A DNA stretch of 64,000 nt, taken from NCBI GenBank assembly GCA_003452395.1, contig DMOI01000040.1:3508-67507 (forward strand), in the 5' to 3' direction. Both the position numbers and the translations under genes were made by a program. The notes below the pieces were generated by a model. The model worked only from the letters and a program-made list of their open reading frames with translations, did no database searches and had not been told where the DNA came from. Shown piece after piece: positions 5,999 to 26,047 of the stretch (the stretch's first letter is position 1; every line of letters begins with the position of its first letter). Source of the DNA: Clostridiales bacterium. Its GTDB lineage: Bacteria > Bacillota > Clostridia > Lachnospirales > UBA12420.

Positions 5999-6121
5999 AA
6001 TTAATAGATAGTTTCCTTTTAGAAAATACATGCTTTTTAGTATATTGATATTTTGCTAGTAAATACTAAAAACAATACTGAATTTTTAATCAGATGTATC
6101 AAAACTAGGGGGGAATTTTTT

Positions 6122-9100
6122 ATGGCTAAAATTATGAAAATGATGGATGGAAATGAGGCGGCAGCTGAGGCGTCGTATTCATTTACAGAAGTATCGGTAA
6201 TCTATCCCATTACACCATCAACGCCAATGGCAGAAAAGGTAGATGAATGGTCTGCAAAAGGAAAGAAGAATATCTTTGGTCAGCAAGTTAAAGTTGTTGA
6301 AATGCAATCAGAAGCTGGAGCAGCAGGATCAATGCATGGTTCACTTGCTGCGGGAGCACTCACAACTACATATACGGCATCGCAAGGGTTACTACTTATG
6401 ATTCCTAATATGTACAAAATGGCTGGTGAGCTTTTGCCAGCTGTATTTCATGTAAGTGCGAGGGCTATTGCAACTCATGCGTTATCTATTTTTGGAGATC
6501 ATCAAGATGTAATGACTACGAGGCAAACAGGCTTTGCACTTTTGGCATCTTCAAATGTACAAGAAGTAATGGACTTGGGAAATGTTGCGCACTTATGTGC
6601 AATTGAGTCAAGAATTCCGTTTCTACACTTTTTTGATGGATTCAGAACTTCACATGAATACCAAAAGATAGAAGTGATAAGTGGGGAGGATGTAGCAAAA
6701 CTGGTTGATTATGATGCGATTAAAGAATTTAGAGGACGATCCCTAAATCCAGAGCATCCAACTATAAGGGGTACGGCACAAAATCCTGATATATATTTTC
6801 AAGGAAGAGAGGCTTCTAATAAGTTTTATGCGGAGGTTCCTGATATTGTTGAAAATTATATGAGGGAAATTGAAAAAATTACCCAAAGAGCTTATCATCC
6901 CTTCGATTATTATGGGTCACCAGAAGCTGAGCATATTATAATTGCCATGGGATCTATGTGCGATACTATTAAAGAGACAATAGATTACCTTGGGAGTAAA
7001 GGTGAAAAATTGGGCTTAATGAATGTACATTTATATAGACCGTTTTCTTCTAAATATTTCTTTAAGGTGTTTCCAAAAACTGTTAAAAAGATTGCAGTAC
7101 TTGATAGAACGAAGGAACCAGGATCTTTAGGTGAACCGCTGTATTTAGATATATTAAAATTATTCTATGATTATCCGGAAAAACCTGTTATAGTTGGTGG
7201 AAGATATGGATTGGGTTCAAAGGATACTAGACCATCACAAGTTATTTCTGTATTTGAAAACTTGAAACAAGAACAACCTAAAAATGGATTTACAATAGGA
7301 ATCGTTGATGATGTAACAAATACATCATTACCAGAAGGAGATGCAGTTGAAACGACACCAGAAGGAACGTTTAGCTGTAAATTCTGGGGGTTAGGTTCTG
7401 ACGGTACAGTTGGAGCAAATAAAATGGCTGTGCAAATCATAGGAGGGAATACAGAGCTTTATGCACAGGCTTATTTCTCATACGACAGCAAAAAATCTGG
7501 TGGCAGTACAGTATCTCATTTAAGGTTCGGCAAGAACCCGATAAGGTCACCATATTTAGTTTATAATTCAGATTATATAGCATGTCATAATAAATCTTTT
7601 TTATATAACCAAGATGTACTTAAAGGGTTAAAAAAAGGTGGAATTTTTGTATTAAATTGCCCATGGAATGAGACAGAACTAGAAGATAAACTTCCTGCAC
7701 AATTTAAAAAATATATTGCGGATAATGATATTAATTTTTATATTATTGATGCAGTATCGATAGCACAAGGACTAAAGCTTGGTGGAAGAATAAACATGAT
7801 AATGCAATCTGTTTTCTTTAAATTAGCAAATATTATTCCTATAGAAGAAGCTGCCGACTTAATGAAAAAGTCTGTTGAAAAGACATATGGTAGTAAAGGT
7901 GAGGAAATAGTAAAATCGAACAAGGCTTCGATAGATAAAGGTATTGAAGGAGTAATTAAAGTAAAAATTCAAGCAAAGTGGGCAAATATAGAGGAAAAAA
8001 TAGAAGAAGAAGAATCGGATGCAAAAGAACTTAATAACTTCGTGAAAAACATTCAATTTCCTATGGCAAGACATCAGGGGGATGAATTGCCCGTAAGTGC
8101 TTTTAATAACATGGAGGATGGGAGTTTTCCTCTAGGAACCACTGCTTACGAAAAACGTGGAATCGCTGTAATGATTCCGGAGTGGCAAACAGATAAATGT
8201 ATACAGTGTAATCAATGTGCATATATTTGTCCACATGCAGTTATACGTCCGTATTTATTAAATCAAGAAGAAAAAAGAAATGCACCTGAATCTTTTGAAA
8301 CAAAGAAGGCTATAGGTAAGGGACTCGAAAATCTAGAGTATCGGATTCAATTAAGTCCACTTGATTGTACGGGTTGTGGTAATTGTGCAGATATTTGCCC
8401 TGCTAAAGGGAAAGCTTTGGTTATGAAGCCAGCAGAGGAAGAAATAAAAGCAGAGGCAGATAACTGGAATTTTGCAATGACTGTAACGGATAAAGAGAAC
8501 CTAGTAGATCCGAAAACATTAAAGGGAAGTCAGTTTATAAGACCTCTACTCGAATTTAGTGGTGCATGTCCAGGGTGCGGAGAAACACCATATGTGAAGC
8601 TACTAACTCAGCTTTTTGGAGATAGGATGATGATTGCAAATGCTACTGGATGCTCATCAATCTGGGGGGCAAGCGCACCATCTATAGCATATTCTACGAA
8701 TGCAGCTGGGAAAGGTCCTGCGTGGGGGAACTCATTATTTGAGGACAATGCTGAGTATGGATATGGAATGTTTCTCGGTGTAAAACAGCTACGTGAAAAA
8801 CTAGTAATGTTGATAAAAGAAGCTTTAAGTCAACCGATTAGTGAAAAATTAAAAGAAGCTTTTGAAGAATGGCTTGATGGATTTGATGATGGAGATGCAT
8901 CTAAGAAAGCTACTGCCAAAATACTACAAGAGATTAAAAATGAAGATTTAGAAGGTAATGAGGTATTAAAAGAAATATTGGATAAAAAGGATTATTTGAT
9001 TAAGAAGTCCCATTGGCTAATTGGTGGAGATGGATGGGCATATGATATTGGATTTGGAGGAGTAGATCAAGTTTTGTATGAAGGCGAGGATGTAAATATT

Positions 9101-9649
9101 TTTGTTATGGATACAGAAATGTATTCAAATACAGGGGGTCAATCATCAAAATCCACCCCAATAGCATCTGTAGCAAAATTTGCTGCATCAGGAAAGAAGA
9201 AGATTAAGAAAAACCTAGGAATGATGGCGATGAGTTATGGGTATGTGTATGTTGCACAAATTTCTATGGGAGCAAATATGAACCAAACCATAAAAGCAAT
9301 TGCAGAAGCAGAAGCATATAAGGGACCTTCAATAATTATTGCGTATGCACCATGTATTAGCCACGGAATAAAAACAGGTATGGAGACTAGCATGGCTGAG
9401 ATGAAGAAAGCCGTTGATACTGGGCACTGGCAGCTTTATAGATATAATCCACTACTAAAAGAAGAAAATAAAAATCCTTTCATTTTAGATTCAAAGGAAC
9501 CAACAGAGTCATTTGAAGATTTCATGAATGGGGAAATTAGATATACATCTTTAAAAAACACATTTCCAGAAAATATAGAAGAGTTACATCATAAAGCAGA
9601 GAAAAACGTTAAGGAAAGATATGAAGAGTATAAAAACTTAGCAGAGTAA
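6122..9649 (+). CDS. nifJ: Pyruvate:ferredoxin (flavodoxin) oxidoreductase, single-polypeptide PFOR
   Basis: ~1175 aa. Typical PFOR N-terminus MAKIMKMMDGNEAAAEASY. Two CxxCxxCxxxCP ferredoxin motifs (CIQCNQCAYICP, CTGCGNCADICP). TPP-binding GGDGWAYDIG. Start moved to ATG 6122, behind a GGGGGG RBS, instead of track start 6053. Confidence 0.95.
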   Translation: MAKIMKMMDGNEAAAEASYSFTEVSVIYPITPSTPMAEKVDEWSAKGKKNIFGQQVKVVEMQSEAGAAGSMHGSLAAGALTTTYTASQGLLLMIPNMYKMAGELLPAVFHVSARAIATHALSIFGDHQDVMTTRQTGFALLASSNVQEVMDLGNVAHLCAIESRIPFLHFFDGFRTSHEYQKIEVISGEDVAKLVDYDAIKEFRGRSLNPEHPTIRGTAQNPDIYFQGREASNKFYAEVPDIVENYMREIEKITQRAYHPFDYYGSPEAEHIIIAMGSMCDTIKETIDYLGSKGEKLGLMNVHLYRPFSSKYFFKVFPKTVKKIAVLDRTKEPGSLGEPLYLDILKLFYDYPEKPVIVGGRYGLGSKDTRPSQVISVFENLKQEQPKNGFTIGIVDDVTNTSLPEGDAVETTPEGTFSCKFWGLGSDGTVGANKMAVQIIGGNTELYAQAYFSYDSKKSGGSTVSHLRFGKNPIRSPYLVYNSDYIACHNKSFLYNQDVLKGLKKGGIFVLNCPWNETELEDKLPAQFKKYIADNDINFYIIDAVSIAQGLKLGGRINMIMQSVFFKLANIIPIEEAADLMKKSVEKTYGSKGEEIVKSNKASIDKGIEGVIKVKIQAKWANIEEKIEEEESDAKELNNFVKNIQFPMARHQGDELPVSAFNNMEDGSFPLGTTAYEKRGIAVMIPEWQTDKCIQCNQCAYICPHAVIRPYLLNQEEKRNAPESFETKKAIGKGLENLEYRIQLSPLDCTGCGNCADICPAKGKALVMKPAEEEIKAEADNWNFAMTVTDKENLVDPKTLKGSQFIRPLLEFSGACPGCGETPYVKLLTQLFGDRMMIANATGCSSIWGASAPSIAYSTNAAGKGPAWGNSLFEDNAEYGYGMFLGVKQLREKLVMLIKEALSQPISEKLKEAFEEWLDGFDDGDASKKATAKILQEIKNEDLEGNEVLKEILDKKDYLIKKSHWLIGGDGWAYDIGFGGVDQVLYEGEDVNIFVMDTEMYSNTGGQSSKSTPIASVAKFAASGKKKIKKNLGMMAMSYGYVYVAQISMGANMNQTIKAIAEAEAYKGPSIIIAYAPCISHGIKTGMETSMAEMKKAVDTGHWQLYRYNPLLKEENKNPFILDSKEPTESFEDFMNGEIRYTSLKNTFPENIEELHHKAEKNVKERYEEYKNLAE

Positions 9650-9915: not shown

Positions 9916-10026
9916 ATAGATCACCTCTTTTTATATTGTTCTCAACATAAGAAAATATATAAGAGGGGAAATTATCTATATTTGTATAGGATAGCAAGTG
10001 GAGCTTTGTCAAATATGTATTTTTCC

Positions 10027-10055
10027 TTGCAAAATTTCTCTTAAAATGGTATAGT
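10027..10055 (+). promoter_or_regulatory. Sigma-A type promoter (extended -10)
   Basis: TTGCAA (10027-10032), 17-nt spacer, TGgTATAGT (-10 at 10050-10055). Lies upstream of the mini-ORF/P-loop gene pair. Confidence 0.55.
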
Positions 10056-10107
10056 AAAGTATATAAAACTAACGGAGTAATTCTTATTAATGAAAGAAGG
10101 TAGATAC

Positions 10108-10194
10108 ATGAAAAAAGAAGATAATACTCTAATATGTCCAGCCTGTAAAGAAGAAATAGTTAGACATGATAGTTGTTTTATCAACTGGAGCTAA
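10108..10194 (+). CDS. 28-aa mini-ORF with a single CPAC knuckle (possible truncated zinc-ribbon)
   Basis: MKKEDNTLICPACKEEIVRHDSCFINWS*. A GAAGG RBS-like element lies upstream. Only one CxxC pair, so it may be a remnant or leader peptide. Confidence 0.25.
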   Translation: MKKEDNTLICPACKEEIVRHDSCFINWS

Positions 10195-10253
10195 TAGATA
10201 AAAATACAATAGAAGAAATAAATTCTAAAAAACCATGATGGAGATGAAGATAT

Positions 10254-10784
10254 ATGATATTTGTAGGTGGGGTCCATGGTGTAGGAAAGTCACATTTCTG
10301 CGATATAATTGCAGAACAAATGGATATACTGATATGTTCTGCGAGCAAGTTGATTTTTGATCTAAAAAAAGAAAATCCTAAAGAGGATAAAAAGGTTATT
10401 GATATACAAAAAAATCAAGATTACCTTGTCGATGCAATTAATCAAATGAACCTAAAAGAAAATTACGTATTAGATGGTCATTTTTGTTTGCTAGATTCGA
10501 ATGGAAATGTAGTTAGAATTCCATATAATACATTTGAAAGAATCAACCCCCAAGCTATGATTATTATCTGTGACTCAGTTGATCAGATCGCCCAAAGACT
10601 AGAAGAACGAGATGGGATAATACATGATAAAGATGCGATTGAAAACTTTCAAAATGAAGAATTAAAATATGCAAAAGAAATCTCAGACTCATTAAATATT
10701 AAATATCTAGTCTATAATAATTCGGAAGAAATAGATGTCGCGATTGATTTTATAAAGAATAGTGAAAATGAAATGGAAGTTTAA
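10254..10784 (+). CDS. P-loop NTPase / small nucleoside(-tide) kinase-like ATP-binding protein
   Basis: 176 aa. Walker A at the extreme N-terminus (FVGGVHGVGKS). Size and layout resemble adenylate-kinase-like AAA_18-type proteins. Confidence 0.6.
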   Translation: MIFVGGVHGVGKSHFCDIIAEQMDILICSASKLIFDLKKENPKEDKKVIDIQKNQDYLVDAINQMNLKENYVLDGHFCLLDSNGNVVRIPYNTFERINPQAMIIICDSVDQIAQRLEERDGIIHDKDAIENFQNEELKYAKEISDSLNIKYLVYNNSEEIDVAIDFIKNSENEMEV

Positions 10785-10951
10785 CTTTTGTAGGAAATTT
10801 AGCAAAGAAAGGGATACATATATAAATAGCATTATCATGGTGGCAAAAAAATAATGGTAATTTAAATTAAAGTAACTAAAAGACTTGAATTCTAAGGAAT
10901 TCAAGTCTTTTTTATTTACTAGTAATGACACGAAAAACGAATATTCAATAA

Positions 10952-11476
10952 CTAATTAGTATTAGGAACACAGATCTTTTGACCAATAAGTAGCGCTCTT
11001 GGATTTATATCTGGGTTAGTTCTAGAAAGAGAACAGACAGTAGTACCATATTTTTGTGCTAATGTATAAAAAGTATCTCCTTCTTTAATAGTATATTCTA
11101 TCATGTTTAAAGGACATCTAACTGGAGGAGTAGCTAAAGGAACACAGATAACTTGATCAATATATAAATTATCTATATCAATATTTGGATTCGATTCTAC
11201 CAAATCATACACTGAGATATTAAAAAATCTAGCAATACCATAAAAAGTATCTCCATTTTTTACTGTATAATAATTGCCCTCAGGACAAGGCGACAACGTT
11301 GGTTTGGAAGGAACACATAAAGTATTCCCTACGTACAGTGTAGAATAATAACCAATATCTGGATTTAGAGATAGTATAGAAGTAATACTAACATTAAATT
11401 TTTTTGCAATACGAACCAAGTTATCATTTTGTACAATAGTATATAAAAATGCACCATCAGGACATTCACGTGGCAT
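10952..11476 (-). CDS. Triple LysM-domain protein without signal peptide (SafA/spore-coat-like)
   Basis: 174 aa. Three LysM repeats, each framed by Cys (CP..Y.V..GDT...IA......L...NP......L..GQ.ICVP). No N-terminal hydrophobic segment. Confidence 0.8.
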   Translation of the reverse strand: MPRECPDGAFLYTIVQNDNLVRIAKKFNVSITSILSLNPDIGYYSTLYVGNTLCVPSKPTLSPCPEGNYYTVKNGDTFYGIARFFNISVYDLVESNPNIDIDNLYIDQVICVPLATPPVRCPLNMIEYTIKEGDTFYTLAQKYGTTVCSLSRTNPDINPRALLIGQKICVPNTN

Positions 11477-11745
11477 AAATCACACCTCTTTTTTTATATT
11501 ATATTTCTATAATATGAAAAATATAATTCAAAGTGCAAGGACATAAAAATAATAATATAAAACCATTGTTAGATTATATATTATAATATATATATAGATC
11601 AAAAAACCTATAGTAATAAATAAACCAAATGAAATGAAAACACAAAGAGCAGAGGTTATTTTACTACCTGTCTTTTTATTTTAACGATTGGCTCACCTTT
11701 TTTATTTGGTGTGATTTTATATCGTTAAGATTAAAATGCATATTA

Positions 11746-13680
11746 TCATTTTTCATAGACATCTAAATCATCTCCTTCAAAGTTAGGTTCATCATCGTAT
11801 TTTATATATATTGCGGCTTTTGGTGCGGTGTCAACGGATAAGTCTTCTATACGTTCTAGTGGAATATCCAATTTTTCTCTTCCGTTATAAACTCCTAAAA
11901 TACAGCCAGTTTCTTTGTCTGCAATTATTGTTACTTTGGGAATTTCTTCTTCTGAATTTTTTATTCCATGTTTATGTTCTTTTTTTGCTTCCCAAAGCTT
12001 TTGGTCAGCTTCTTTGCGAGTCTCACTAGGTAATTTAATATGATCATCAGTAGTATGTTCGCATATAACGCCGGAAATATTAATTTGGAAGTCATTCTTT
12101 TGGTTACTATTGTATTGTTCCGCTCCTGCAGATATTTTACTTATGATTTCTGCTATCTTGTTTTTTTTGTCTGTCTCATTAGAAAAGTCTAATAAATCAT
12201 CGGGTATAACTATGTCAAATTCATCTCCGCCAGTTCTTATAATGAATCCTTTTCCATCTAAAGCATCATTAATCAATTGAACAGAGTCTTTAAGTAACTT
12301 ACTACCAGATTTATCACCAAGTTCTTCATTAATGATACGTAAATTGTTAATATCGAATACAATCCTTGTTGATTGTTTATAAACATGAGATAAAACAGTA
12401 CCAATCTCCTTTGAGAAAGCACCGGTGACCTTATCTTTTATTAATAATTTAGAAAGTTTATTAAATATCATACCAAAATCATGGTTATCAATTAAAGCAT
12501 CAAAATCTTTGGTTATCAAACATCTAAGGATGCTATAATCATCTTCCACATTATTATCAGTAGTGACTGAAGCATCTAATTTATTAGATGCTTTTACCTG
12601 TTTATATAATTCTGCTTGCTTTCCATTAAGCATAAGTATATTAGGAAGAGCATTATATTGCTCTTCATTTAATATAAAGCCTTCTATCTCGTCTGTCTCA
12701 TCATTGGAAATTAATTCGAAAGAATCTTTTTGCAGATTTACAACAGGAGCATCCTTTTGAGAGTGACATATCTCTGTAACTGCATCAATAGACGTTCTAA
12801 GGTTATATGTTTGAGTTTCTGAATCATAAAGTTTGCTACAACCAGTTAAAAAATTAATCGGATAGTTTGTATTGTCTAAATTATGTTCATTTACTTTAGA
12901 AGTTACTGTATTGATAATTTCTTGGGGATTTGATCCTATGTCAGGTATTAGTAAAAATTTATCTCCATCTAACCTAATTACTTTGCCAGATGCACCGCAG
13001 AAAATTTCTGCTGCAGATCTTATATATTTATCACCCTCATCATGTCCACCATCTGGAGAATCATTGATTTCTTTTAGACCTTTAAGTTCAAACATTATAA
13101 TACTAGAATCTAAATTTGCTTTTTTAGATTGTTCTATATTTTCTTTTGCCAAAATTGATAGAGCTTCTCTCTTGAAAATATTAGTATTAACGGTACCATC
13201 AATAATAAGAAAATAAAAGCTTTCTAATAGTTCTTTGTGAAAATCTTTACTATCAATTTCACTAAGAATTCTAAAATGTTTATCTGCTAAATCAATTTTA
13301 GAGTCCATAACTTCATTATGTTCTTTGACAAGCTTAATACGATCCCCCATAAAGTATCCATAAGCCTCGATTAAATCTTTATTATAATCCTTTAAGAATT
13401 CTAAATCTTTCAAGAAACCCAAATCTCCTAGTAATTCTAAATCTCCTAGTAATTCTGAGTTTTCTTTAAAAAATTTTGCATATTCCTCGACATTATGTAT
13501 ATCTACAAACTCATTCTCAATATTTCTTAAAGAATCAGAGTTGCTTTGTAAGGCATGTGTTTTTTGTTCTAGATTTATTTTGGTTTTGGGTTTAGAGATA
13601 AATGCAGCAACTATTGCAAGATAAGTAGCAAAAGAAGCACTGTTTATATCAGGATGTTTATTCTCTATATTAGCATTCAT
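11746..13680 (-). CDS. Cytoplasmic tandem GGDEF-domain protein (degenerate domain 1 DGDKF; intact domain 2 GGDEF)
   Basis: 644 aa, no TM segment. Domain 1: ...MFELKGLKEINDSPDGGHDEGDKYI...VIRLDGDKFLLIPD. Domain 2: DKVTGAF...VFDINNLRIINEELGDKSGSKLL...IIRTGGDEFDIVIPDD...INISGVI...ADQKLWEAKK. N-terminal region has ELLGDL/EFLKDL repeats. Confidence 0.8.
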   Translation of the reverse strand: MNANIENKHPDINSASFATYLAIVAAFISKPKTKINLEQKTHALQSNSDSLRNIENEFVDIHNVEEYAKFFKENSELLGDLELLGDLGFLKDLEFLKDYNKDLIEAYGYFMGDRIKLVKEHNEVMDSKIDLADKHFRILSEIDSKDFHKELLESFYFLIIDGTVNTNIFKREALSILAKENIEQSKKANLDSSIIMFELKGLKEINDSPDGGHDEGDKYIRSAAEIFCGASGKVIRLDGDKFLLIPDIGSNPQEIINTVTSKVNEHNLDNTNYPINFLTGCSKLYDSETQTYNLRTSIDAVTEICHSQKDAPVVNLQKDSFELISNDETDEIEGFILNEEQYNALPNILMLNGKQAELYKQVKASNKLDASVTTDNNVEDDYSILRCLITKDFDALIDNHDFGMIFNKLSKLLIKDKVTGAFSKEIGTVLSHVYKQSTRIVFDINNLRIINEELGDKSGSKLLKDSVQLINDALDGKGFIIRTGGDEFDIVIPDDLLDFSNETDKKNKIAEIISKISAGAEQYNSNQKNDFQINISGVICEHTTDDHIKLPSETRKEADQKLWEAKKEHKHGIKNSEEEIPKVTIIADKETGCILGVYNGREKLDIPLERIEDLSVDTAPKAAIYIKYDDEPNFEGDDLDVYEK

Positions 13681-13776
13681 ACACTCACCCTCATTCTAAC
13701 TACTGTTATGTAAAAAAATGGAATCCACTACATATATTATACATCTATATACAAAAATGTCAATATATGGAGCTGT

Positions 13777-13957
13777 TTTTTTGACAATAAGAAGTGCTCT
13801 TGGATTTGACTCATAAAATTATGCACTGAGATATTAAAAAACTTAGCAATACCATAAAAATTATCTCCTTTTTAATATATACTTTTATAATATGAAAAAG
13901 ATTATCCAAAGTGCATGGATATTAAAATAATAATAAAAACCATTGTCAGATTATATT
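13777..13957 (-). pseudogene. Eroded, internally deleted copy of the LysM gene plus its 5' region
   Basis: 13777-13807 matches 10987-11016. 13821-13868 matches 11207-11254. 13865-13957 matches 11486-11580 (RBS/promoter region). No intact reading frame. Confidence 0.7.
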
Positions 13958-14207
13958 TAATTATATATAATAAAGGCGAAAAGATAAAACTACCATATAT
14001 TATCACTGCAATTTAGAAATGTATAAAAAATCAAAATATTATTTGCACAATTATCTATAAAGTGCTATAATATTACTTAGATATTTTCAAAGCTTAGGAG
14101 TAGCTAAAGCATCTTTTTTAGGGGAAGGAGTGACTAATATATAACTAATATAGGTATTTCAAAATTATAATATAATACATTCGTTAAATCTACAAGAGGG
14201 AATAAAT

Positions 14208-15254
14208 ATGTATGATTTAGAGTTTGTTCATGAGAGAAATAAAATATTAATTAAATTATATTTTGCGTTAGTACTAATCGGACTTTTTGTTGCAGTACCA
14301 AATTCATATGGCTCGTCATGCTTTGTAGAAGTTGTAGTAACTATGCCGACTGCAGCAGGAGTCGCTTTAATTATTACGTATTTTATAAAGATTAAAAAGT
14401 ACATTGTAGCTTCAATGTATGCAATGATATTAAGTATAGGAGCTATTTGTTTTATACTTACATATGCTCATCCGATTGCCTTAAATTATATTTCATTTTT
14501 TATGCTCTTAGGTATGTCTACGTATTATCATAATTATAGGACAGTAATTCTTTCGTCAATAATTATCCTGTTTTCAACTAATTACTTTATGGTTATGGAT
14601 GGATCAGTTGTATTTCAAAGATTACCAGGAGATAATTTTATAAACATGGCTGTAGCAGCTAACATTGTTGTAATTATGGTTTGTATGATGGTGATAGGGC
14701 AAATATATATTGGCAAAAAAATGCTAAAACAGATAACTAGTACATATGAAAAACTTGAGAAGACTCAGAAGGAGCTTATTATTGATGAGTTAACAGGTAT
14801 ATACAATTATAGGTATTTTGAGTATATAGTACAAGAAAAGATAAAAAACAAAGATAAGTTTGAACTTATTATGATAGACATGGACAAGTTTAAAAATGTA
14901 AATGATACATTTGGACATTTAGCTGGTAATAAAGTGTTACAAGATTTAACAAATTTTATAAAATCAAAATTAGATGATAAAGATATATTTTGCAGATTTG
15001 GAGGAGACGAATTTTTTATAATATTGAATAATCTAGAAACTGCTGAGGAAACAGCAGAAAATATTATGAAAGACAAGAAAAAAATCTGTACGCTATATGA
15101 AGGTAATAAAATAAATTATGAGTTTAGTGTGGGACTATATAAACATGAAAATGAAAATGAAGATATAGACTATAAAGAAATAATAGAAAAAGTTGATAAA
15201 GCGATGTATGAAGCGAAACAAACAGGCGGAAATAAAATAATGAGATGTGGGTGA
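14208..15254 (+). CDS. Membrane-anchored GGDEF-domain diguanylate-cyclase-like protein
   Basis: 348 aa. About 5-6 N-terminal TM helices, then DELTGIYNYRYF...IMIDMDKFKNVNDTFGHLAGNKVL...CRFGGDEFFIIL...SVGL...AMYEAKQTGGNK. Confidence 0.88.
   Translation: MYDLEFVHERNKILIKLYFALVLIGLFVAVPNSYGSSCFVEVVVTMPTAAGVALIITYFIKIKKYIVASMYAMILSIGAICFILTYAHPIALNYISFFMLLGMSTYYHNYRTVILSSIIILFSTNYFMVMDGSVVFQRLPGDNFINMAVAANIVVIMVCMMVIGQIYIGKKMLKQITSTYEKLEKTQKELIIDELTGIYNYRYFEYIVQEKIKNKDKFELIMIDMDKFKNVNDTFGHLAGNKVLQDLTNFIKSKLDDKDIFCRFGGDEFFIILNNLETAEETAENIMKDKKKICTLYEGNKINYEFSVGLYKHENENEDIDYKEIIEKVDKAMYEAKQTGGNKIMRCG
14589..14959 (+). repeat. 371-bp direct repeat, copy 1 (inside the membrane GGDEF gene)
   Basis: Collinear with 16509-16879 at a constant offset of 1920 nt. 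About 11 mismatches by manual count, no indels. Confidence 0.9.
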
Positions 15255-15577
15255 AAGTAAATTGTATGTAACACAATATGAGGTTAAATAAATGATAATA
15301 TGAAATTTCTATGGAAAGAAATATATGACGCATAAATTTTAAAAATAAGTTATTATATCAAACTAATTATATACTGCGAATATATCCTAAAATATATTTA
15401 ACAAGTGCTTATTAGGGGAATGACTTACTGAAGAGCCGTATGCCTTAACAGGTCACGTGCCTCTACCAAACTGGAGGAGGAAGTTCAATAAAAGTGGCTA
15501 AAAAGCCTTTAAATATAAGTTTTTTTGAATTTGAAAATCGGCTATTATACATTATTTTTAAGGAGGTGATATTTATT

Positions 15578-16453
15578 ATGGTGTTGTCTAATTATTTACC
15601 AGATAATGAAAAAGTTATTTATAAATGTGAAAAGAAACTATGGATTGTTATAGCATATATTTGTTTTTTGATTTTATTTTTAATAGTCTTTGGAATTGCG
15701 TCTAAAGAGATAGTAAGTTATTATACAGAAGGTAATGTTATTTTTGATATGGTAAGTGATTATTCTTTGATGCTGATTACGGCTATATTTATAGTGATAT
15801 TAATTAGTGCAGGTGTCAGTTATATTTTTGATATATTTTTAATAACCAATAATTATATAGTTATAAGACGTGGTATACTGGGAGAAATATGTTTAATTAA
15901 AAGAAAACAAATAGTAGCGAAACGCGAAATAGTTATTACCGAAAAAGTAGCGAAATGTTATAAAGTTGAGTTTCTTTTAAAAAATGGTAAAATAATAAAT
16001 TCAGGTGACTTACACTGCAACTCTAGTACGTATTATGATTTAAATGGAAAACTTAATTATCCTAAGGTTGAAAATAAAAAAGATTTTTTAAATTTCAAAA
16101 TCAATTCAGATAATAATGTTTTAGTTAAGAAAAATTTAAATTTTTCTATAATAGGCTATGGTGTGTACTTGATTTTAATGATTTTCTCTTTACTTCTTTT
16201 TAGTGGAATTAATGAGAAATACGGTGAGCAAAAAAAATTTGAATTGCATGGAATAAGTAACAAATACACGGGATACAATAAAGGTACTATATATTATATT
16301 TCAATATTAGAAGATCAAAGTCAAAAAGAGTATAATATACATGTAAGTGGAGATATCTATGATTCTATTACACCTAATAAAAAAATTAAAGTTACAGGGA
16401 AGACAGGCTGCTTAGGTATTGTATATGACTTGAAAATGGTAAATATAGATTAA
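15578..16453 (+). CDS. Membrane protein with YdbS/YdbT-like bacterial PH (bPH_2) domain and a second TM plus a C-terminal beta-rich domain
   Basis: Start moved to ATG 15578, behind an AGGAGG RBS (track start 15494 is GTG with no RBS). LPDNEKVIYKCEKK + two TM + NNYIVIRRGILGEICLIKRKQIV is the bPH_2 pattern. Confidence 0.6.
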   Translation: MVLSNYLPDNEKVIYKCEKKLWIVIAYICFLILFLIVFGIASKEIVSYYTEGNVIFDMVSDYSLMLITAIFIVILISAGVSYIFDIFLITNNYIVIRRGILGEICLIKRKQIVAKREIVITEKVAKCYKVEFLLKNGKIINSGDLHCNSSTYYDLNGKLNYPKVENKKDFLNFKINSDNNVLVKKNLNFSIIGYGVYLILMIFSLLLFSGINEKYGEQKKFELHGISNKYTGYNKGTIYYISILEDQSQKEYNIHVSGDIYDSITPNKKIKVTGKTGCLGIVYDLKMVNID

Positions 16454-16508
16454 AGAAGTTTTAGTAGTAAAAATACGATTAAACAAAAGAGAGTGTAAAA
16501 TAAAGGTA

Positions 16509-16879
16509 ATGGTTATGGATGGATCAGTTGTATTTCAAAGGTTATCAAGAGACAATTTTATAAACATGGCTGTAGCAGCTAACATTGTTGTAATTATGGT
16601 TTGTATGATGGTGATAGGGCAAATATATATCGGCAAAAAAATGCTAAAACAGATAACTAGTACATATGAAAAACTTGAGAAGACTCAGAAGGAGCTTATT
16701 ATTGATGAGTTAACAGGTATATACGATTATAGGTATTTTGAGTACATAGTACAAGAAAAGATAAAAAATAAAGATAAGTTTGAACTTATTATGATAGACA
16801 TGGACAAGTTTAAAAATGTAAATGATACATTTGGTCATTTGGCTGGTAATAAAGTGCTACAAGATTTAACAAATTTTAT
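16509..16879 (+). repeat. 371-bp direct repeat, copy 2
   Basis: See 14589-14959. Similarity ends abruptly after ...caaattttat. Confidence 0.9.
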
Positions 16880-16919
16880 TGAAGAATGCAAAAAGATAAG
16901 TTCAACAGGAAATAAATAA
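16509..16919 (+). pseudogene. Truncated duplicate of the membrane GGDEF gene (last TM to mid-GGDEF domain, lacks the GGDEF motif)
   Basis: 136-aa ORF about 97% identical at nucleotide level to codons ~128-251 of 14208-15254. It then reads 13 unrelated codons and stops before the RxGGDEF active site. Confidence 0.75.
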
Positions 16920-16950
16920 ATAAATAAATAAATATTTTAAAAATAATTCA

Positions 16951-16978
16951 AAAACGTATTGAAAATAATACGTTTTTT
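16951..16978 (+). terminator. Rho-independent terminator
   Basis: aaaacgtatt-gaaaat-aatacgtttt stem-loop followed by a T run. Confidence 0.7.
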
Positions 16979-17026
16979 CTTTATAATATAAATAACATAT
17001 ATATTTTAAAATAATGAGGGATTATC

Positions 17027-17827
17027 ATGGTAATAACGAGTTCAGAAAATATAATTGTGAAAGATGCAATGAAGCTTAAACAAAAAAAATATAGGGATGA
17101 GGAAAACAAATTTGTAATTGAAGGATTTAAAATGGTTTCAGAAATTCCGATAGACTGGGATGTATATAGAATTATTGTTTCTGAAAAGCTTCCAGAAGGG
17201 CAGAGACTTAAACTCGATCGATTTGAAAAAAGAATTCTTTTTACAGTGTCAGAAAGTATATTTAAAAGGCTATCTGATACTGAAGAGCCCCAAGGAGTCA
17301 TGGCTATATGCTATAAAAGAGATTATTTTTTGAATAGGGTGTTAGGAAAAGAAAAATTAAATATATTTATATTAGAAGAAATACAAGATCCGGGTAATCT
17401 AGGTACAATAATAAGAACTGCAGATGCTACAAAGGTTGATGCTATTTTAGTCTCAAAAAAATCAGCAGATTTGTATAATCCAAAAACCATTAGGTCAACG
17501 ATGGCATCAATATTTCACATACCCATTTTTACGGATATTGATATTAAAGAAATGTATGAAATTCTTAAAAGTAAAAAAATAAAAATATTGGCAACTCATC
17601 TAAACACCGATAAAAATATATACAATATTAAGTTAAATGAAAGTATATGCGTTGTTATTGGCAATGAGTCAAGAGGAATATCAGATACTGCATTTAAGGG
17701 TGCTGATTTGTTGTTTAAAATACCTATGATAGGACAAGCAGAATCACTCAATGCAAGTATAGCTGCAAGTGTTACAATGTATGAAATATTACGACAAAGA
17801 ATGTATTGTAGGCAGGAGAAAATATGA
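17027..17827 (+). CDS. TrmH/SpoU-family RNA 2'-O-methyltransferase (group 3, RlmB/YsgA-like)
   Basis: 266 aa. EEIQDPGNLGTIIRTADA, VIGNESRGIS and SLNASIAASVTMYE motifs of SPOUT methyltransferases. Confidence 0.88.
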   Translation: MVITSSENIIVKDAMKLKQKKYRDEENKFVIEGFKMVSEIPIDWDVYRIIVSEKLPEGQRLKLDRFEKRILFTVSESIFKRLSDTEEPQGVMAICYKRDYFLNRVLGKEKLNIFILEEIQDPGNLGTIIRTADATKVDAILVSKKSADLYNPKTIRSTMASIFHIPIFTDIDIKEMYEILKSKKIKILATHLNTDKNIYNIKLNESICVVIGNESRGISDTAFKGADLLFKIPMIGQAESLNASIAASVTMYEILRQRMYCRQEKI

Positions 17828-19176
17828 AAAAAGAAATCTATATTGAAGGTAAAATTGAGGATGTAAAGTTTCCAAATAAGTCAATCCTAGAGCATGAAGG
17901 GAAAAAAGTTGTGGTAAAAGGTGGACTTATAGGGCAAACTGTGAGAGTTAGAGCAATAAGTAAAAGGGGCAGATTACAGGGGAAAATAGTTGAGGTTTTA
18001 GAGAAATCTCCGTATGAAAAGAAGGCATTATGCATGCATTTTGATACTTGTGGAGGGTGCACATATCAAAATTTAAGATATAGAGAGCAACTAAAGCTAA
18101 AACAAGATCAAGTAAAGAGTATATTAGATGAAGTTATAGATTATAAATATAAATTTTGTTCAATAGAGCCTAGTCCTACTGAATACGGATATAGAAATAA
18201 AATGGAGTTTTCTTTTGGTGATGAATATAAAGGGGGAGAGTTAACTCTAGGACTACACAAGAGTGCCTCTATGTATGATGTAATAACTACATCGAATTGC
18301 CAAATAGTAGATAAAGATTATAGGAAAATTCTTTGTGTTGTACTGCACTTTTTTAAAAAGCTTAACATTGATTATTATAACAGAAAGACACATATTGGTG
18401 GTTTGAGACATCTTATAATAAGAAAAGCTTCAAAAACAAATGAAATTATGGTAAATATAGTTACAAGTTCACAAATAGATGTTGATTTTAATCATTTTGC
18501 ACACAAACTTTTAAATATAAAACTAGATGGAGCTATAGAAAGTGTGATACATACTATTAATGATTCAATTTCTGATGTTGTTAAACCTGAAAAAATTGAA
18601 GTTTTATATGGAAGGGATTATATTGTCGAAGATATTTTAGGACTTAAATTTAAGATATCGCCATTTTCATTTTTTCAAACTAATTCTCTTGCGGCAGAGA
18701 AATTATATTCTATTATAAAAGGATTTGTGGGATTTACAAACAATAAAGTAATATTTGATCTTTATTCTGGTACAGGAACTATTGCTCAAATAATTGCTGT
18801 TGTTGCAAAAAAAGTATATGGTATTGAACTCATCGAAGAAGCAGTAGAAGCTGCACGTGAAAATGCTAAAATTAATGGACTGAAAAATTGTGAATTTATA
18901 GCAGGTGATTTGCTAGAAAAAATAGAAGAACTAAAGGATGAACCGCACGTAATAGTTATAGATCCACCAAGAGCTGGAATACATCCTAAGGCACTAGAAA
19001 AGATTATTAATTTTGATGCCGAGCATATAATATATGTTTCTTGTAATCCTATAACACTTGCAAATGATTTAAAGATATTGCAGGAAAATGGATATGATGT
19101 AGAAAAGGTTCAATGCGTGGATATGTTTCCGCACACACCTCATGTGGAGACTGTTGTGAAACTATCAGCGAATTGA
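17824..19176 (+). CDS. TrmA/RumA-family 23S rRNA (uracil-C5)-methyltransferase with TRAM domain and Fe-S cluster
   Basis: 450 aa. N-terminal TRAM-like barrel, Cys cluster CMHFDTCGGCTYQ, SAM fold DLYSGTGTI, catalytic YVSCNP. ATGA overlap with the upstream gene. Confidence 0.9.
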   Translation: MKKEIYIEGKIEDVKFPNKSILEHEGKKVVVKGGLIGQTVRVRAISKRGRLQGKIVEVLEKSPYEKKALCMHFDTCGGCTYQNLRYREQLKLKQDQVKSILDEVIDYKYKFCSIEPSPTEYGYRNKMEFSFGDEYKGGELTLGLHKSASMYDVITTSNCQIVDKDYRKILCVVLHFFKKLNIDYYNRKTHIGGLRHLIIRKASKTNEIMVNIVTSSQIDVDFNHFAHKLLNIKLDGAIESVIHTINDSISDVVKPEKIEVLYGRDYIVEDILGLKFKISPFSFFQTNSLAAEKLYSIIKGFVGFTNNKVIFDLYSGTGTIAQIIAVVAKKVYGIELIEEAVEAARENAKINGLKNCEFIAGDLLEKIEELKDEPHVIVIDPPRAGIHPKALEKIINFDAEHIIYVSCNPITLANDLKILQENGYDVEKVQCVDMFPHTPHVETVVKLSAN

Positions 19177-19321
19177 AATTAATGTAAAAACACATAAAAG
19201 AAGTAAGTCAGTAAGATTCAAAAGTTATATATTTAATGTAACTAATAAGGAGTTGCTTAGCTACATACCAAGTGGGTGAAAATAACTTTTACAATTCTAA
19301 TTTATTTAAGGGGGTGATATT

Positions 19322-19414
19322 ATGTCAAAAGGAGATAAACCATCGGCACCAAAACCACAAGTGAAGAAGCCAAAACAAGATAAACCCAAAAAAGATAAGA
19401 AAAATTATAATTAA
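19322..19414 (+). CDS. 30-aa lysine/proline-rich small protein
   Basis: Not in the track. AAGGGGGTGAT RBS 5 nt upstream of ATG. MSKGDKPSAPKPQVKKPKQDKPKKDKKNYN*, followed by a strong terminator. Confidence 0.4.
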   Translation: MSKGDKPSAPKPQVKKPKQDKPKKDKKNYN

Positions 19415-19424
19415 CGATAAGTAC

Positions 19425-19463
19425 AAAAGTTTTATCTAGATAAATTATAGATAAAACTTTTTT
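19425..19463 (+). terminator. Rho-independent terminator
   Basis: 14-bp stem aaaagttttatcta/tagataaaactttt plus a T run. Confidence 0.75.
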
Positions 19464-19495
19464 GTTATATTTAAAAACTTTTTTATCGAAATATA

Positions 19496-19524
19496 TTGAT
19501 TTTTTATTTATTTAGGTATATACT
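19496..19524 (+). promoter_or_regulatory. Sigma-A type promoter of the hydrogenase-like operon
   Basis: TTGATT, 17 nt, TATACT. Lies ~80 nt upstream of the first gene. Confidence 0.5.
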
Positions 19525-19603
19525 ATTCGAGTATGTAATTTCCATAATAGTATTTATTATACATAATCTTAAATTATAAAATTCCAAAAGAGGAGATTTT
19601 TTT

Positions 19604-21397
19604 ATGCTTGAATCATTTTATAATATAATGATGACCGATTGGTTGTCTATTTTCTTTGTTGCGCTAATTATTTTGATTAGTATTCCAATTTGTCTATTTT
19701 CTATAGGATATGTTAAAGAATATAGACAAAACTACTCGATAAAATATATTTATAGTATGATGACGTTTTTTATATTGTCAATGATCGGAGTCGTTTTCTC
19801 AAATAATAGTATAGTGTTTATGATATTTTGGGAGATTATGTCGATGACCTCGTTTTTTCTTGTTATTTATGAATACAAAAATAAAGAAAATTTGAGTTCG
19901 GGGATTATGTACTTTGTGATGACTCATATAAGCGGACTGGTGCTAATGATAATGTTTGCACTCATCTATAAATATACTAACAGTTTTGATTTTAAAGAAA
20001 TAATGGAATATTCTAACAAGTTTACTCTTACTCAAAAAACTATAATATTTATACTGGCTATAATAGGCTTTGGTGCAAAGGCTGGACTCATGCCACTTCA
20101 TGCATGGCTTCCGAAGGCTCACCCGTCAGCACCTTCAAATGTGTCAGCACTTATGTCGGGTGTTATGCTTAAGGTTGCTGTATATGGATTTATACGTACT
20201 GCTTTTATGTTTTTAGGAGATGTACCGTATAGCTATGGTATCTCCCTAATGATAATTGGAACATTGACAGCTATTATATCCATCTTGAACGCATCTGCCC
20301 AGCGTAATATGAAGAAGCTTTTAGCATATTCAAGCGCGGAAAATATAGGACTTATCTTTTCAGTTCTTGGACTTGCAATTATTTTCAAGAGCTATGGGTT
20401 GAATACTTTGGCAGTATTAGCTCTAACTGCAGGGTTGTTTCATGCAGTAAATCATGGCATTTTTAAGAGTCTTTTATTTACGGCTGCGGGTAGCGTTTTA
20501 TATTCGACAGGAACTAAAAATATGAATGAACTTGGAGGACTTTATAAAAAAATGAAATTTGCTACTTTTTGTGCATTTGTAGGAACTGCTGCAATTTCTG
20601 CTATACCTCCACTTAATGGATTCGCAAGTGAAGTAGCTATTTTTATGAGTTTTATACAAGTAGCAGGTAAGATAGATAGTATTTGGATGATAGTTATTAT
20701 TTTATGCGGAAGTATTTTAGCATTGACTAGTGGGGCTGTAATGTATGTTTCAGTAAAAAGTTTTGGAATTACATATCTGGGGGAGCCAAGAAGTATAAAA
20801 GCACAAAACATACATAAGGTACCGATTTCTATGAATATTGGAATGGGATTGTTATCGGTATATGCAATTTTATTTGGGGTCCTTTCGAAATTTATATTTG
20901 AATATATAATAAAAATTTCACAAGATATTATAAATGTAGGGAACATTAGACTTGATGAAAATACACTTCAAAACTTTGTTGGTTTTGATATAGTAGTAAT
21001 GGCTAGCATAATTATCTCGGTGACTGTAGTGTTTTTACTAGTAAATTACATAACTCGCAAGAATAAAACATTTAAAGTATATGATACGTGGGGATGTGGA
21101 TTTAATGAAGCAAAACCATATATGCAATATAGTGGGAGCGGATTTACTCAGCCACTAAGTAAAATAGCGACAAGTATTATAGGCTACAAAAAAACAGTAT
21201 TAAAAGAAGAAACAATCTTTTTTAGACAACATACCACTGACATGATTGAAAAATATTTATATAATCCAATTATTAGTTTGGTAGATTATCTTGCTATAAA
21301 GATTACAAAAATACATTACGGACAAATTCAGGTATATATTGCCTATATAATTATGTCATTAATTATTGCGGTAGTATGCGTAGTTAAGTTTATCTAG
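19604..21397 (+). CDS. HyfB/HycC-like antiporter-type membrane subunit (NuoL/ND5 family)
   Basis: 597 aa, polytopic. GLMPLHAWLPKAHPSAPSNVSALMSGVMLKVAVYG signature of proton-conducting membrane transporter subunits. Confidence 0.88.
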   Translation: MLESFYNIMMTDWLSIFFVALIILISIPICLFSIGYVKEYRQNYSIKYIYSMMTFFILSMIGVVFSNNSIVFMIFWEIMSMTSFFLVIYEYKNKENLSSGIMYFVMTHISGLVLMIMFALIYKYTNSFDFKEIMEYSNKFTLTQKTIIFILAIIGFGAKAGLMPLHAWLPKAHPSAPSNVSALMSGVMLKVAVYGFIRTAFMFLGDVPYSYGISLMIIGTLTAIISILNASAQRNMKKLLAYSSAENIGLIFSVLGLAIIFKSYGLNTLAVLALTAGLFHAVNHGIFKSLLFTAAGSVLYSTGTKNMNELGGLYKKMKFATFCAFVGTAAISAIPPLNGFASEVAIFMSFIQVAGKIDSIWMIVIILCGSILALTSGAVMYVSVKSFGITYLGEPRSIKAQNIHKVPISMNIGMGLLSVYAILFGVLSKFIFEYIIKISQDIINVGNIRLDENTLQNFVGFDIVVMASIIISVTVVFLLVNYITRKNKTFKVYDTWGCGFNEAKPYMQYSGSGFTQPLSKIATSIIGYKKTVLKEETIFFRQHTTDMIEKYLYNPIISLVDYLAIKITKIHYGQIQVYIAYIIMSLIIAVVCVVKFI

Positions 21398-21410
21398 GAG
21401 GTCAACAAAC

Positions 21411-22340
21411 ATGCTTATATATATTGTTTATATTTTACAACCTTTACTAATTTTACTTTTAGCACCTCTGTTTATGGGTATTTTAGGTAAAGTCAAAGCT
21501 TGTTTTAGAGGATATACGGGACCATCAGTATTTCAAGTGTACTATGATATAGCCAAACTAATGAAAAAAGACGAAGTAATTTCCAAAAGTAGTTCTTTTG
21601 TAACAACAATAGGACCCTTGTTTACGCTCGTTGCGGCAGTGTCATGCACATTCATTATTCCTGTATTCTATACATCTTTAGCATTTAGTTTTGGAAATAT
21701 ATTTGTTATAATTTTTACATTAGGTATCATAAAGTTTATTACTTCTTTAATAGGTTTAGACTCGGCAAGCACATTTGGAGGAATGGGATCAAGTAGGGAG
21801 CTTTTTATTTCGATGCTTGCTGAACCAATAATGTTTGTTGTGATTACATTTTTGTTCATTGAGACTAAGTCATTTAATATATTTACGATAGCTTATGCAA
21901 ACAGCACACAGCTGTCATTTGGGCCAGGTCATGTACTTGCTGCACTAGCATTTTTTATATTGCTTTTAGCAGAAAATGCAAGGATGCCGGTAGATAATCC
22001 AGAGACTCATTTGGAACTTACGATGGTCCACGAAGCAATGATATTAGACTTATCTGGGAAAAGGTTGGCGTATATTGAGTTAGCTTCAGCGATAAAATTT
22101 GTATTATTTTTAACAATTCTTATTAATGGATTTTTGCCTTATGGAATAGCTACGGGACTTAATTTATTAACAATGGGTACGGCAATAATTTTGTTTATCA
22201 TTAAACTAATCGGATGTCTTATTGTGATAGCTGTTATAGAGACGACAATGGCGAAGTTTAGATTATTCAGAGTGCCAGAACTCTTGACATTCGCATTTGC
22301 TCTAGGAATTGTCTCGATAATAATAAATCACTACGCGTAA
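21411..22340 (+). CDS. HycD/HyfC-like membrane subunit (NuoH/ND1 family)
   Basis: 309 aa. ENARMPVDNPETHLELTMVHEAMILDLSG is the HycD/NuoH hallmark region. Confidence 0.88.
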   Translation: MLIYIVYILQPLLILLLAPLFMGILGKVKACFRGYTGPSVFQVYYDIAKLMKKDEVISKSSSFVTTIGPLFTLVAAVSCTFIIPVFYTSLAFSFGNIFVIIFTLGIIKFITSLIGLDSASTFGGMGSSRELFISMLAEPIMFVVITFLFIETKSFNIFTIAYANSTQLSFGPGHVLAALAFFILLLAENARMPVDNPETHLELTMVHEAMILDLSGKRLAYIELASAIKFVLFLTILINGFLPYGIATGLNLLTMGTAIILFIIKLIGCLIVIAVIETTMAKFRLFRVPELLTFAFALGIVSIIINHYA

Positions 22341-22354
22341 GGAGGGGAGCATTT

Positions 22355-22966: not shown

Positions 22967-22977
22967 CAGGTGAAGAA

Positions 22978-24438: not shown

Positions 24439-24450
24439 AAATTGAAAATT
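24427..24450 (+). repeat. Short TTGAAA(A/G) heptamer run (family C)
   Basis: attgaaagttgaaaattgaaaatt spans the stop codon of the HyfF-like gene. Confidence 0.5.
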
Positions 24451-24470
24451 AATGGGTAGGATGTGGGAAA

Positions 24471-26036: not shown

Positions 26037-26047
26037 GTGAGTTTATA

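Follow-up and report, generated by a model that had tools for sequence, protein, structure and literature searches.

A tandem GGDEF protein of a Clostridiales bacterium with serine in place of aspartate at the guanine-specificity position of its second domain

Introduction

To our knowledge, the characterized synthesis of 3',3'-cyclic GMP-AMP (hereafter cGAMP) by enzymes of the GGDEF type, referred to as the Hypr enzymes, does not extend beyond Geobacter, Bdellovibrio, and Gram-negative bacteria akin to them. Here we describe a gene for a protein with two GGDEF domains from an uncultured Clostridiales bacterium (GenBank assembly GCA_003452395.1, contig DMOI01000040.1, positions 3,508 to 67,507 of the forward strand; this stretch of 64,000 nucleotides is hereafter called the window, and all positions are counted from its first letter). 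According to the list of open reading frames (ORFs) the gene lies at 11746-13680 on the minus strand, begins with ATG, ends with a stop codon at 11746-11748, and encodes 644 amino acid residues. The first of its two domains, D1, is degenerate, and the second, D2, has an intact catalytic motif together with a serine at the column that in diguanylate cyclases (DGCs) holds the aspartate responsible for guanine specificity.

In the Hypr enzymes a serine at position 348 (GacA numbering) forms a hydrogen bond with the Watson-Crick face of the base, and natural enzymes with serine or threonine at this position carry GGDE(F/Y) exclusively, that is GGDEF rather than GGEEF, a regularity termed the Goldilocks rule (PMC6456294). 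The glutamate at the fourth position of the motif is the general base and acts across the dimer. A cross-dimer arginine, found in 94% of DGCs and favoring guanine, is replaced in the cGAMP makers, with the predominant ones having tyrosine, serine, alanine, or glutamine in its stead (PMC6456294). Substitution of the serine by aspartate turns Bd0367 into a synthase of cyclic di-GMP (c-di-GMP) (PMC9140294, PMC10333796), and the same is true of GacA (PMC9140294). The serine variant makes up 0.17% of GGDEF domains (PMC9140294).

Domain organization and overall fold

GGDEF (PF00990) is the sole Pfam-A family matched by the 644-residue protein, in two stretches and with a score of 90.4 bits (cut-off 23.8); the NCBIfam model TIGR00254, for which the cut-off is 37.4, gives 76 bits. 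Searches of NCBIfam and of the PDB sequences place the two domains at residues ~166-290 and ~409-574. Neither REC, PAS, GAF, HAMP, nor any other non-GGDEF domain was detected by Pfam. The highest 19-residue mean on the Kyte-Doolittle scale is 1.3, at residues 11-29, the usual threshold for a transmembrane segment being ~1.6, and a membrane anchor considered at these residues was dropped on account of that value. These results support a soluble protein without a recognized sensor domain, as had been stated in a first-pass annotation made from the DNA letters alone.

A custom hidden Markov model (HMM) was built from the 122 GGDEF domains contained in the best 150 matches of an exhaustive search (see below), and both domains were aligned to it, D1 scoring 60 bits and D2 113 bits. 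PleD numbers are employed here as a guide only, and the assignment of columns rests on the crystallized DGC 3ign and on the 122-domain profile. On the basis of this model, AlphaFold2 (AF2), and Foldseek, D1 is delineated from residues 149 to 309 (12754-13236, minus strand, as are all parts of the gene) and follows a long helical stalk, and D2 extends from residues 408 to 576 (11953-12459).

A first AF2 prediction was run on the full-length protein with an alignment of the query and 66 matches. In that model the predicted local distance difference test score (pLDDT) is ~89-98 over most of residues ~411-575 and falls to ~69 at residues 541-550. D1 has values of 50-68, and those of the N-terminus, the linker, and the C-terminal tail are also low. 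A second run on residues 100-410 with a D1-centered alignment raised the pLDDT to 83-97 for residues 149-309 and yielded a complete GGDEF fold with long helices preceding the domain. A Foldseek comparison with the PDB returned, in the top 50 matches for each model, solely GGDEF domains of bacterial DGCs, with target-normalized TM-scores up to 0.75-0.80 (the maximum for D1 being 0.80). These included the stalk-bearing SiaD, GCN4-WspR, and DgcB and, for D2, the Geobacter Hypr GGDEF domain 6d9m. On these models both D1 and D2 are predicted to be complete GGDEF folds, each with preceding helices.

The Foldseek result bears on a formal analogy that had been drawn with Cas10, and on a reading by which the protein would be a defense cyclase whose two palm domains produce an oligonucleotide alarm signal. 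The resemblance is a formal one, namely two palm-type domains of which one is degenerate, and a neighboring gene for an AAA_17/AAA_18 kinase-like protein of 176 residues (10254-10784, plus strand) gives a weak PADLOC match to VakA (E = 3e-6, 25.9 bits); no other defense component was seen near it. However, neither Cas10 nor any other palm-domain protein is found in the top 50 Foldseek matches of either model, both domains score as PF00990, and the protein lacks an HD domain and has zero PADLOC matches. Neither a CRISPR array nor any cas, CBASS, CARF, or SAVED gene lies nearby, as the first-pass annotation had already noted for CRISPR and CBASS components. The analogy was thus not borne out, and a Cas10-like role is scarcely credible.

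The active site of the second domain

The signature motifs of D2 that had been listed earlier (DKVTG, FDINN, IINEE, GGDEF, SxGv, and AK) are all present in the profile alignment. The segment DKVTGAFSKE, residues 416-425 (12406-12435), contains Ser423 and Lys424. It is followed by FDINNLRIINEE, residues 442-453 (12322-12357), in which lie the metal-binding Asp443 of FDINN, Arg448 in place of an otherwise invariant lysine, and the base-contacting Asn451 of IINEE. The motif GDKSGS ends with Ser460 (codon AGT, 12301-12303), and RTGGDEF, with its central aspartate, spans residues 482-488 (12217-12237); the ISGVI and EAKK (Lys566) motifs complete the set. Asp443 corresponds to PleD Asp327 (aspartate in 121 of the 122 profile domains), Asn451 to Asn335 (asparagine in all 122), Arg482 to Arg366 (arginine in all 122), and Lys566 to Lys442 (lysine in 119), and the run Gly484-Gly485-Asp486-Glu487-Phe488 is likewise kept. 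As read from the alignment, D2 is missing none of the residues known to be essential for the formation of a phosphodiester bond, the general base Glu487 among them.

Ser460 occupies the base-specificity column, equivalent to PleD Asp344 and GacA Ser348. Among the 122 nearest GGDEF domains this column contains aspartate in 119, serine in two, and asparagine in one. An ungapped alignment with 3ign (FDINNLRIINEELGDKSGS versus FDIDHFKPVNDTYGHLAGD) gives the same placement, and the serine reported at first reading is therefore upheld by both routes. Its AGT codon is two substitutions removed from the aspartate codon GAT. The same protein, 100% identical and thus devoid of strain variation among the other assemblies that carry the gene, is encoded on eight public contigs. 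The sources shown for three of these are the metagenome-assembled genome (MAG) GCA_001797235.1 (contig MGOV01000040.1) and two assemblies of SRA runs. Given this identity, the unusual residues are not sequencing errors.

The spacings Asn451-Ser460-Asp486, 9 and 26 residues, equal those of Asn339-Ser348-Asp374 in GmGacA (PMC6456294), and the serine lies 24 residues before GGDEF, as it does in Bd0367 (PMC10333796). Like the Hypr enzymes, D2 has a GGDEF with the central aspartate required by the Goldilocks rule, and its residue at the cross-dimer position is one other than arginine. The latter column (PleD Arg300, GacA Tyr304) contains 96 arginines, four lysines, and two tyrosines in the 122 domains, and D2 has Lys424. 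The two non-aspartate domains in the aligned matches also lack the cross-dimer arginine (Fisher p = 0.026, n = 2), and the match P0142, when read directly, has leucine there. In other respects D2 departs from the Hypr pattern: the motif GHL(I/V/A/F)GS (PMC10333796) reads GDKSGS, with aspartate for histidine and lysine for leucine, the cross-dimer lysine is not arginine yet is cationic, in contrast to the tyrosine, serine, alanine, or glutamine of the predominant cGAMP makers, and an arginine stands in for the invariant Lys332.

The account that we tentatively favor, at somewhat less than an even chance, is that the protein is a cytoplasmic, lineage-restricted dinucleotide cyclase that dimerizes through its stalks, with a D2:D2' active site taking ATP as well as GTP and D1 serving in regulation or as a scaffold. 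Dimerization would proceed through the helical stalks, as in other GGDEF enzymes, so as to bring together two D2 half-sites for the condensation of two nucleoside triphosphates. Ser460 can hydrogen bond with adenine as well as with guanine, and the motif contains the short Asp486. D2 would therefore probably accept both ATP and GTP and produce cGAMP, c-di-AMP, or both beside c-di-GMP. Lys424, which occupies the cross-dimer stacking position, may tilt the ratio towards guanine-containing products. As a prediction from sequence, the synthesis of cGAMP by D2 is plausible.

Several points weigh against this account. Replacement of the aspartate by serine inactivated four of five canonical DGCs, although these had GGEEF (PMC6456294), and Hypr enzymes with arginine at the cross-dimer position (Cabther_A1065, Ddes1475) make more c-di-GMP (PMC6456294); Lys424 could still engage in cation-π stacking and so favor guanine. 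D2 is also substituted at columns that hardly vary in its neighbors. PleD Lys332 is replaced by Arg448 (lysine in 121 of the 122), His340 by Asp456 (histidine in 119), Asp336 by Glu452 (aspartate in 119), and the asparagine of LxNRR by Ser423 (asparagine in 103), and a near-invariant tyrosine (116 of the 122) is Trp563. Such changes could reduce or abolish catalysis, and because of them the activity of D2 is not assured: the "active-looking" label of the first-pass annotation holds for the essential residues, which are intact, and not for these further catalytic columns. The departures had escaped that annotation, as had the guanine contacts of D1 discussed below (Asn206 and Asp217, with Lys203 and Arg236). 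The full-length AF2 model has a predicted TM-score (pTM) of 0.44, and neither the D1-D2 arrangement nor the dimer geometry is reliably predicted. The searches described below yielded no orthologs that would attest to conservation of Ser460. Finally, Rfam at its gathering threshold yielded no family in the 64 kb window, cyclic-dinucleotide riboswitches included (at E ≤ 1 there was nothing relevant around the gene), and no cGAMP or c-di-GMP effector was found in the window.

The positive charge of Lys424 at the stacking position, along with the c-di-GMP output of the arginine-bearing serine enzymes just mentioned, speaks for D2 being an ordinary DGC that is active and makes essentially c-di-GMP only, the serine being a tolerated variant and D1 a structural or regulatory remnant. 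The catalytic residues of D2 are all present, and the adjoining second GGDEF gene (see below) is consistent with c-di-GMP signaling in the organism. Yet the reported serine-containing GGDEF enzymes made some cGAMP, and it is the aspartate, missing from D2, that drives specificity for GTP, with S348D mutants becoming DGCs (PMC6456294). We consider this explanation unlikely.

The degenerate first domain

The loss of catalytic residues from D1, which the first-pass annotation had described, is evident in the profile alignment and the column counts. In the motif MFELKGLKEIND, residues 196-207 (13060-13095), Glu198 occupies the metal-aspartate column (PleD Asp327), and Lys203, Asn206, and Asp207 are conserved. 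The next motif, GGHDEGD, residues 211-217 (13030-13050), is preceded by a two-residue insertion and keeps Gly212-His213 and Gly216-Asp217, with Asp217 at the guanine-specificity column. RLDGDKF, residues 236-242 (12955-12975), replaces RxGG(D/E)EF: the first glycine (Gly368) is Asp238, and the general-base glutamate is Lys241. There is no equivalent of the C-terminal Lys442. Judged by this loss of motifs, D1 is a catalytically dead pseudo-enzyme domain. The I-site columns lack RxxD in both domains, as had been claimed; they show a gap and a glycine in D1 and Asp475-Gly-Lys-Gly478 in D2.

D1 retains Lys203, Asn206, Asp217, and Arg236, through which base and phosphates are contacted. This pattern, base-binding asparagine and aspartate with phosphate-contacting lysine and arginine, is that of a ligand-binding pseudo-enzyme, although binding itself is inferred. 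Within our favored account D1 would bind a guanine nucleotide, either GTP or a cyclic dinucleotide, and its role would be that of an allosteric module or a scaffold. A precedent would be the degenerate GGDEF domain of Caulobacter PdeA/CC3396, for which Christen and colleagues (2005) reportedly found allosteric activation by bound GTP. Given that the protein has no I-site and no recognized sensor domain, D1 is a candidate input module.

The same residues allow a different arrangement to be envisaged, an intramolecular pseudo-heterodimer in which D1, with Asp217 and no general base, faces D2, with Ser460, the base, and the metal site, to form one asymmetric active site. GTP bound to D1 would donate its 3'-hydroxyl group, which Glu487 of D2 would activate for attack on the ATP or GTP held by D2. 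The product would be a linear pppGpN (pppGpA) or an obligately mixed dinucleotide (cGAMP), independent of the statistics of homodimerization. In keeping with this, D1 has acidic residues at both metal columns (Glu198 and Asp240) in addition to its four contact residues, and its losses are limited to the base glutamate, the first glycine, and the C-terminal lysine. Because the general base acts across the dimer (PMC6456294), a single live half-site can make one of the two bonds; the lack of an I-site and a sensor domain is also compatible. There is no known precedent for such an enzyme, however, and the full-length AF2 model, in which D1 is of low pLDDT, shows no confident interdomain packing. 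The linker of ~100 residues and the separate stalks look like the usual parallel-dimer arrangement, and tandem proteins with two intact GGDEF domains are common, which speaks against a tie between the tandem architecture and asymmetric catalysis. On balance the pseudo-heterodimer is very unlikely.

Relatives of the protein

The exhaustive phmmer search of 1.84 billion cluster representatives gave 1,974 matches with E ≤ 0.001, the best of which scored 57 bits. In the matches listed, the alignment takes in no more than a portion of the query, in essence one of the two GGDEF domains, and no full-length relative was found among the representatives. Word-indexed searches with the full protein and with D2 alone gave no match, which reflects the word prefilter and not an absence of GGDEF relatives. 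The protein was not in the collection queried by exact-sequence cluster look-up, and peptide-pattern scans of the GTDB species genomes and of JGI metagenomes revealed no relative. By these searches the protein is an orphan at its full length. A recent internal duplication is ruled out by the low identity of D1 to D2 (32% over 60 residues), and neither domain is close to the GGDEF domain encoded by the neighboring gene.

Tandem GGDEF proteins account for 24-26 of the best 150 matches, and in 11 of 26 an intact motif is paired with a degenerate one. The coupling of a dead and a live domain, to which the first-pass annotation had drawn attention, is therefore not unusual. In none of the 26 does the intact domain carry serine at the specificity column.

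The orphan status of the protein speaks for its being non-catalytic, with both domains serving as pseudo-enzymes in a nucleotide-binding receptor or scaffold, or for its being a fast-evolving, decaying paralog of one lineage with little function. The five or six near-invariant columns at which D2 deviates, those of Lys332 and His340 among them, point in the same direction, as does the location of the gene in a low-GC block that is non-syntenic in relatives and contains a duplicated GGDEF fragment. Non-enzymatic GGDEF proteins do exist, for example S. aureus GdpS, which recruits DgkB (PMC11962490). On the other hand, an ORF of 644 codons has remained intact in a genome of 29% GC, where stop codons arise easily, and D2 retains GGDEF, the metal aspartate, and the asparagine, arginine, and lysine, an outcome that relaxed selection would not lead one to expect. 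In the AF2 predictions the folds of both domains are confident, and the gene is preceded by good promoter and Shine-Dalgarno matches. We regard a non-catalytic protein as somewhat unlikely and retain the dinucleotide cyclase as the tentative preference.

The gene and its surroundings

A putative sigma-70-type promoter, TTGACA-16-TATAAT, with a 12/12 match to the consensus, is located at 13736-13763 (minus strand), ~55 nucleotides 5' of the ATG, and a Shine-Dalgarno-like sequence, GAGGGTGA, can be read at 13685-13692, ~7 nucleotides 5' of it. The N-terminal region of the protein, residues 1-148 (13237-13680), has no Pfam or NCBIfam match and no transmembrane segment, and AF2 models it as helices of low pLDDT. 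Within it lies an in-frame tandem repeat of period 18 bp in ~3-4 copies, identified with Tandem Repeats Finder (13386-13456, with two perfect copies at 13421-13456), which codes for LLGDLE/FLKDLE hexapeptide repeats at residues ~76-98. Slippage at this repeat would be a possible source of length variation in the protein. The linker between the domains, residues 310-407 (12460-12753), is acidic and predicted with low confidence (pLDDT 26-47 for residues ~270-400), and helices at residues 380-414 lead into D2. The C-terminal tail, residues 577-644 (11749-11952), consists to 28% of aspartate and glutamate, is predicted to contain short β-strands, and matches no known domain.

On the same strand and 3' of the gene is that for a protein of 174 residues with three LysM domains according to Pfam (10952-11476). 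The intergenic stretch yielded no terminator-like site, and the two genes are possibly co-transcribed; a bidirectional terminator-like hairpin with a 15-bp stem and a T-run on both strands closes the unit at 10878-10911. The LysM protein has conserved cysteine residues and no evident signal peptide and, by analogy with other LysM proteins that lack one, may belong to the spore coat or cortex.

Divergently oriented on the 5' side is a gene for a membrane protein of 348 residues with a GGDEF domain (14208-15254, plus strand). Its RFGGDEF motif is intact, the base-specificity column contains asparagine (GHLAGN), and the cross-dimer arginine column contains tyrosine (DELTGIYNYR), as in GacA with its Tyr304. 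A similar pair of asparagine and aromatic residue is present in match P0038 (GHSEGN, NWR), and match P0036 has serine and tyrosine. By these residues the membrane protein is a possible second candidate for a shift in nucleotide specificity. Part of its gene is included in a direct repeat of 371 bp (14589-14959 and 16509-16879, 97% identity), the second copy of which forms a truncated GGDEF ORF of 136 residues (16509-16919), located 3' of an unannotated membrane ORF of 319 residues without a Pfam match (15494-16453). Position 14618, just within the repeat, is a break point in two independent assemblies. These features point to duplication or rearrangement in the block.

The block at ~10000-20000, which holds the genes for the AAA_17, LysM, tandem GGDEF, and membrane GGDEF proteins and the 319-residue ORF, has a GC fraction of 0.27-0.29, versus 0.32-0.36 for much of the remaining window. 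A nearby RumA-like methyltransferase was used as the anchor for a comparison of synteny with 63 related Clostridia loci. The closest of the species is Clostridiales bacterium GWE2_32_10 (80% identity for the anchor), whose contig stops short of the region, and in the other 62 (≤59% identity over a full-length match; mostly Sedimentibacter) none of the five block genes was found within 10 kb. The block has the look of accessory DNA specific to this lineage. Other neighbors identified with Pfam are a pyruvate:ferredoxin oxidoreductase (PFOR; 6053-9649) and RNA methyltransferases. A protein of 791 residues (2025-4400, plus strand) has three C-terminal SLH domains as its sole Pfam match, with the N-terminal ~650 residues uncharacterized, and is a probable cell-wall-anchored surface protein. 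At 19604-26755 (plus strand) there is a cluster of the Mrp-antiporter/complex I type, with two Proton_antipo_M subunits, NADHdh, a fused 30 kDa/49 kDa subunit, and a 20 kDa subunit with 4Fe-4S, which resembles an energy-converting hydrogenase of the Ech/Mbh type, the PFOR being nearby.

Implications

If D2 makes cGAMP or some other product than c-di-GMP, the reach of this chemistry would extend to an anaerobic lineage of the Clostridiales, by convergence on a very different scaffold. The protein would then be a natural experiment as to which residues besides Ser348 and the motif aspartate are needed for relaxed base specificity, the cross-dimer lysine and the arginine for Lys332 being the ones of interest. 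D1, with its guanine contacts, could show how tandem GGDEF proteins, which are common but essentially unstudied, are regulated. A pseudo-heterodimer, if true, would represent a new route by which a GGDEF scaffold attains hetero-dinucleotide specificity. Were D2 ordinary or inactive, the protein would be one more divergent paralog in a very large family.

Comparison with known systems

With the canonical DGCs of PF00990 (PleD, WspR, DgcZ, DosC) D2 shares the fold, the metal aspartate, Asn335, Arg366, GG(D/E)EF, Lys442, and the helical stalk, and the best sequence and structure matches of both domains are of this type. It differs from them in having serine for Asp344, and the protein as a whole in lacking an RxxD I-site and a recognizable sensor and in scoring no more than 57 bits against any of the 1.84 billion representatives. 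As aligned, D2 fails the strict definition of a diguanylate cyclase at Asp344.

The Hypr enzymes (Geobacter GacA/GSU1658 and Gmet_1914, PDB 5VS9/6D9M; Bdellovibrio Bd0367) have in common with D2 the GGDEF fold and the serine column. They come with REC or GAF input domains, whereas Pfam detects neither in the tandem GGDEF protein, and Bd0367 keeps an I-site that the latter lacks. The characterized Hypr hosts are Geobacter and Bdellovibrio, in contrast to the clostridial host and the extra N-terminal pseudo-GGDEF domain observed here. In the phmmer comparison the Geobacter Hypr domain 6d9m has an E-value of 0.95, versus 1.9e-4 for the ordinary DGC 3ign. By this measure D2 shows no specific affinity to the GacA/Bd0367 clade, and any Hypr behavior would therefore be convergent. 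The likeness noted in the first-pass annotation holds for the serine, with the central aspartate of GGDEF as a further point in common, and it does not extend to descent from the GacA clade or to a REC domain. We describe D2 as Hypr-like rather than as a member of the Hypr family, the likeness probably having arisen by convergence.

D1 finds its counterparts in the degenerate GGDEF domains that serve as sensors or scaffolds (PdeA/CC3396 with GEDEF, FimX, LapD, and S. aureus GdpS), which like D1 have lost catalytic residues. It differs from the degenerate sensors in that the partner output domain is GGDEF rather than EAL. The uncharacterized tandem GGDEF-GGDEF proteins among the matches (for example P0002, P0005, P0011, P0019, P0065, and P0105) likewise have two such domains in a chain of 500-750 residues. 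They match at the level of the domains only and are not orthologs; most have transmembrane, PAS, or other N-terminal modules, and it is usually their C-terminal copy that is degenerate. Viewed against these systems, the protein reads as a very divergent member of the GGDEF family, in which a dead-plus-live tandem is common and the serine variant a known rarity.

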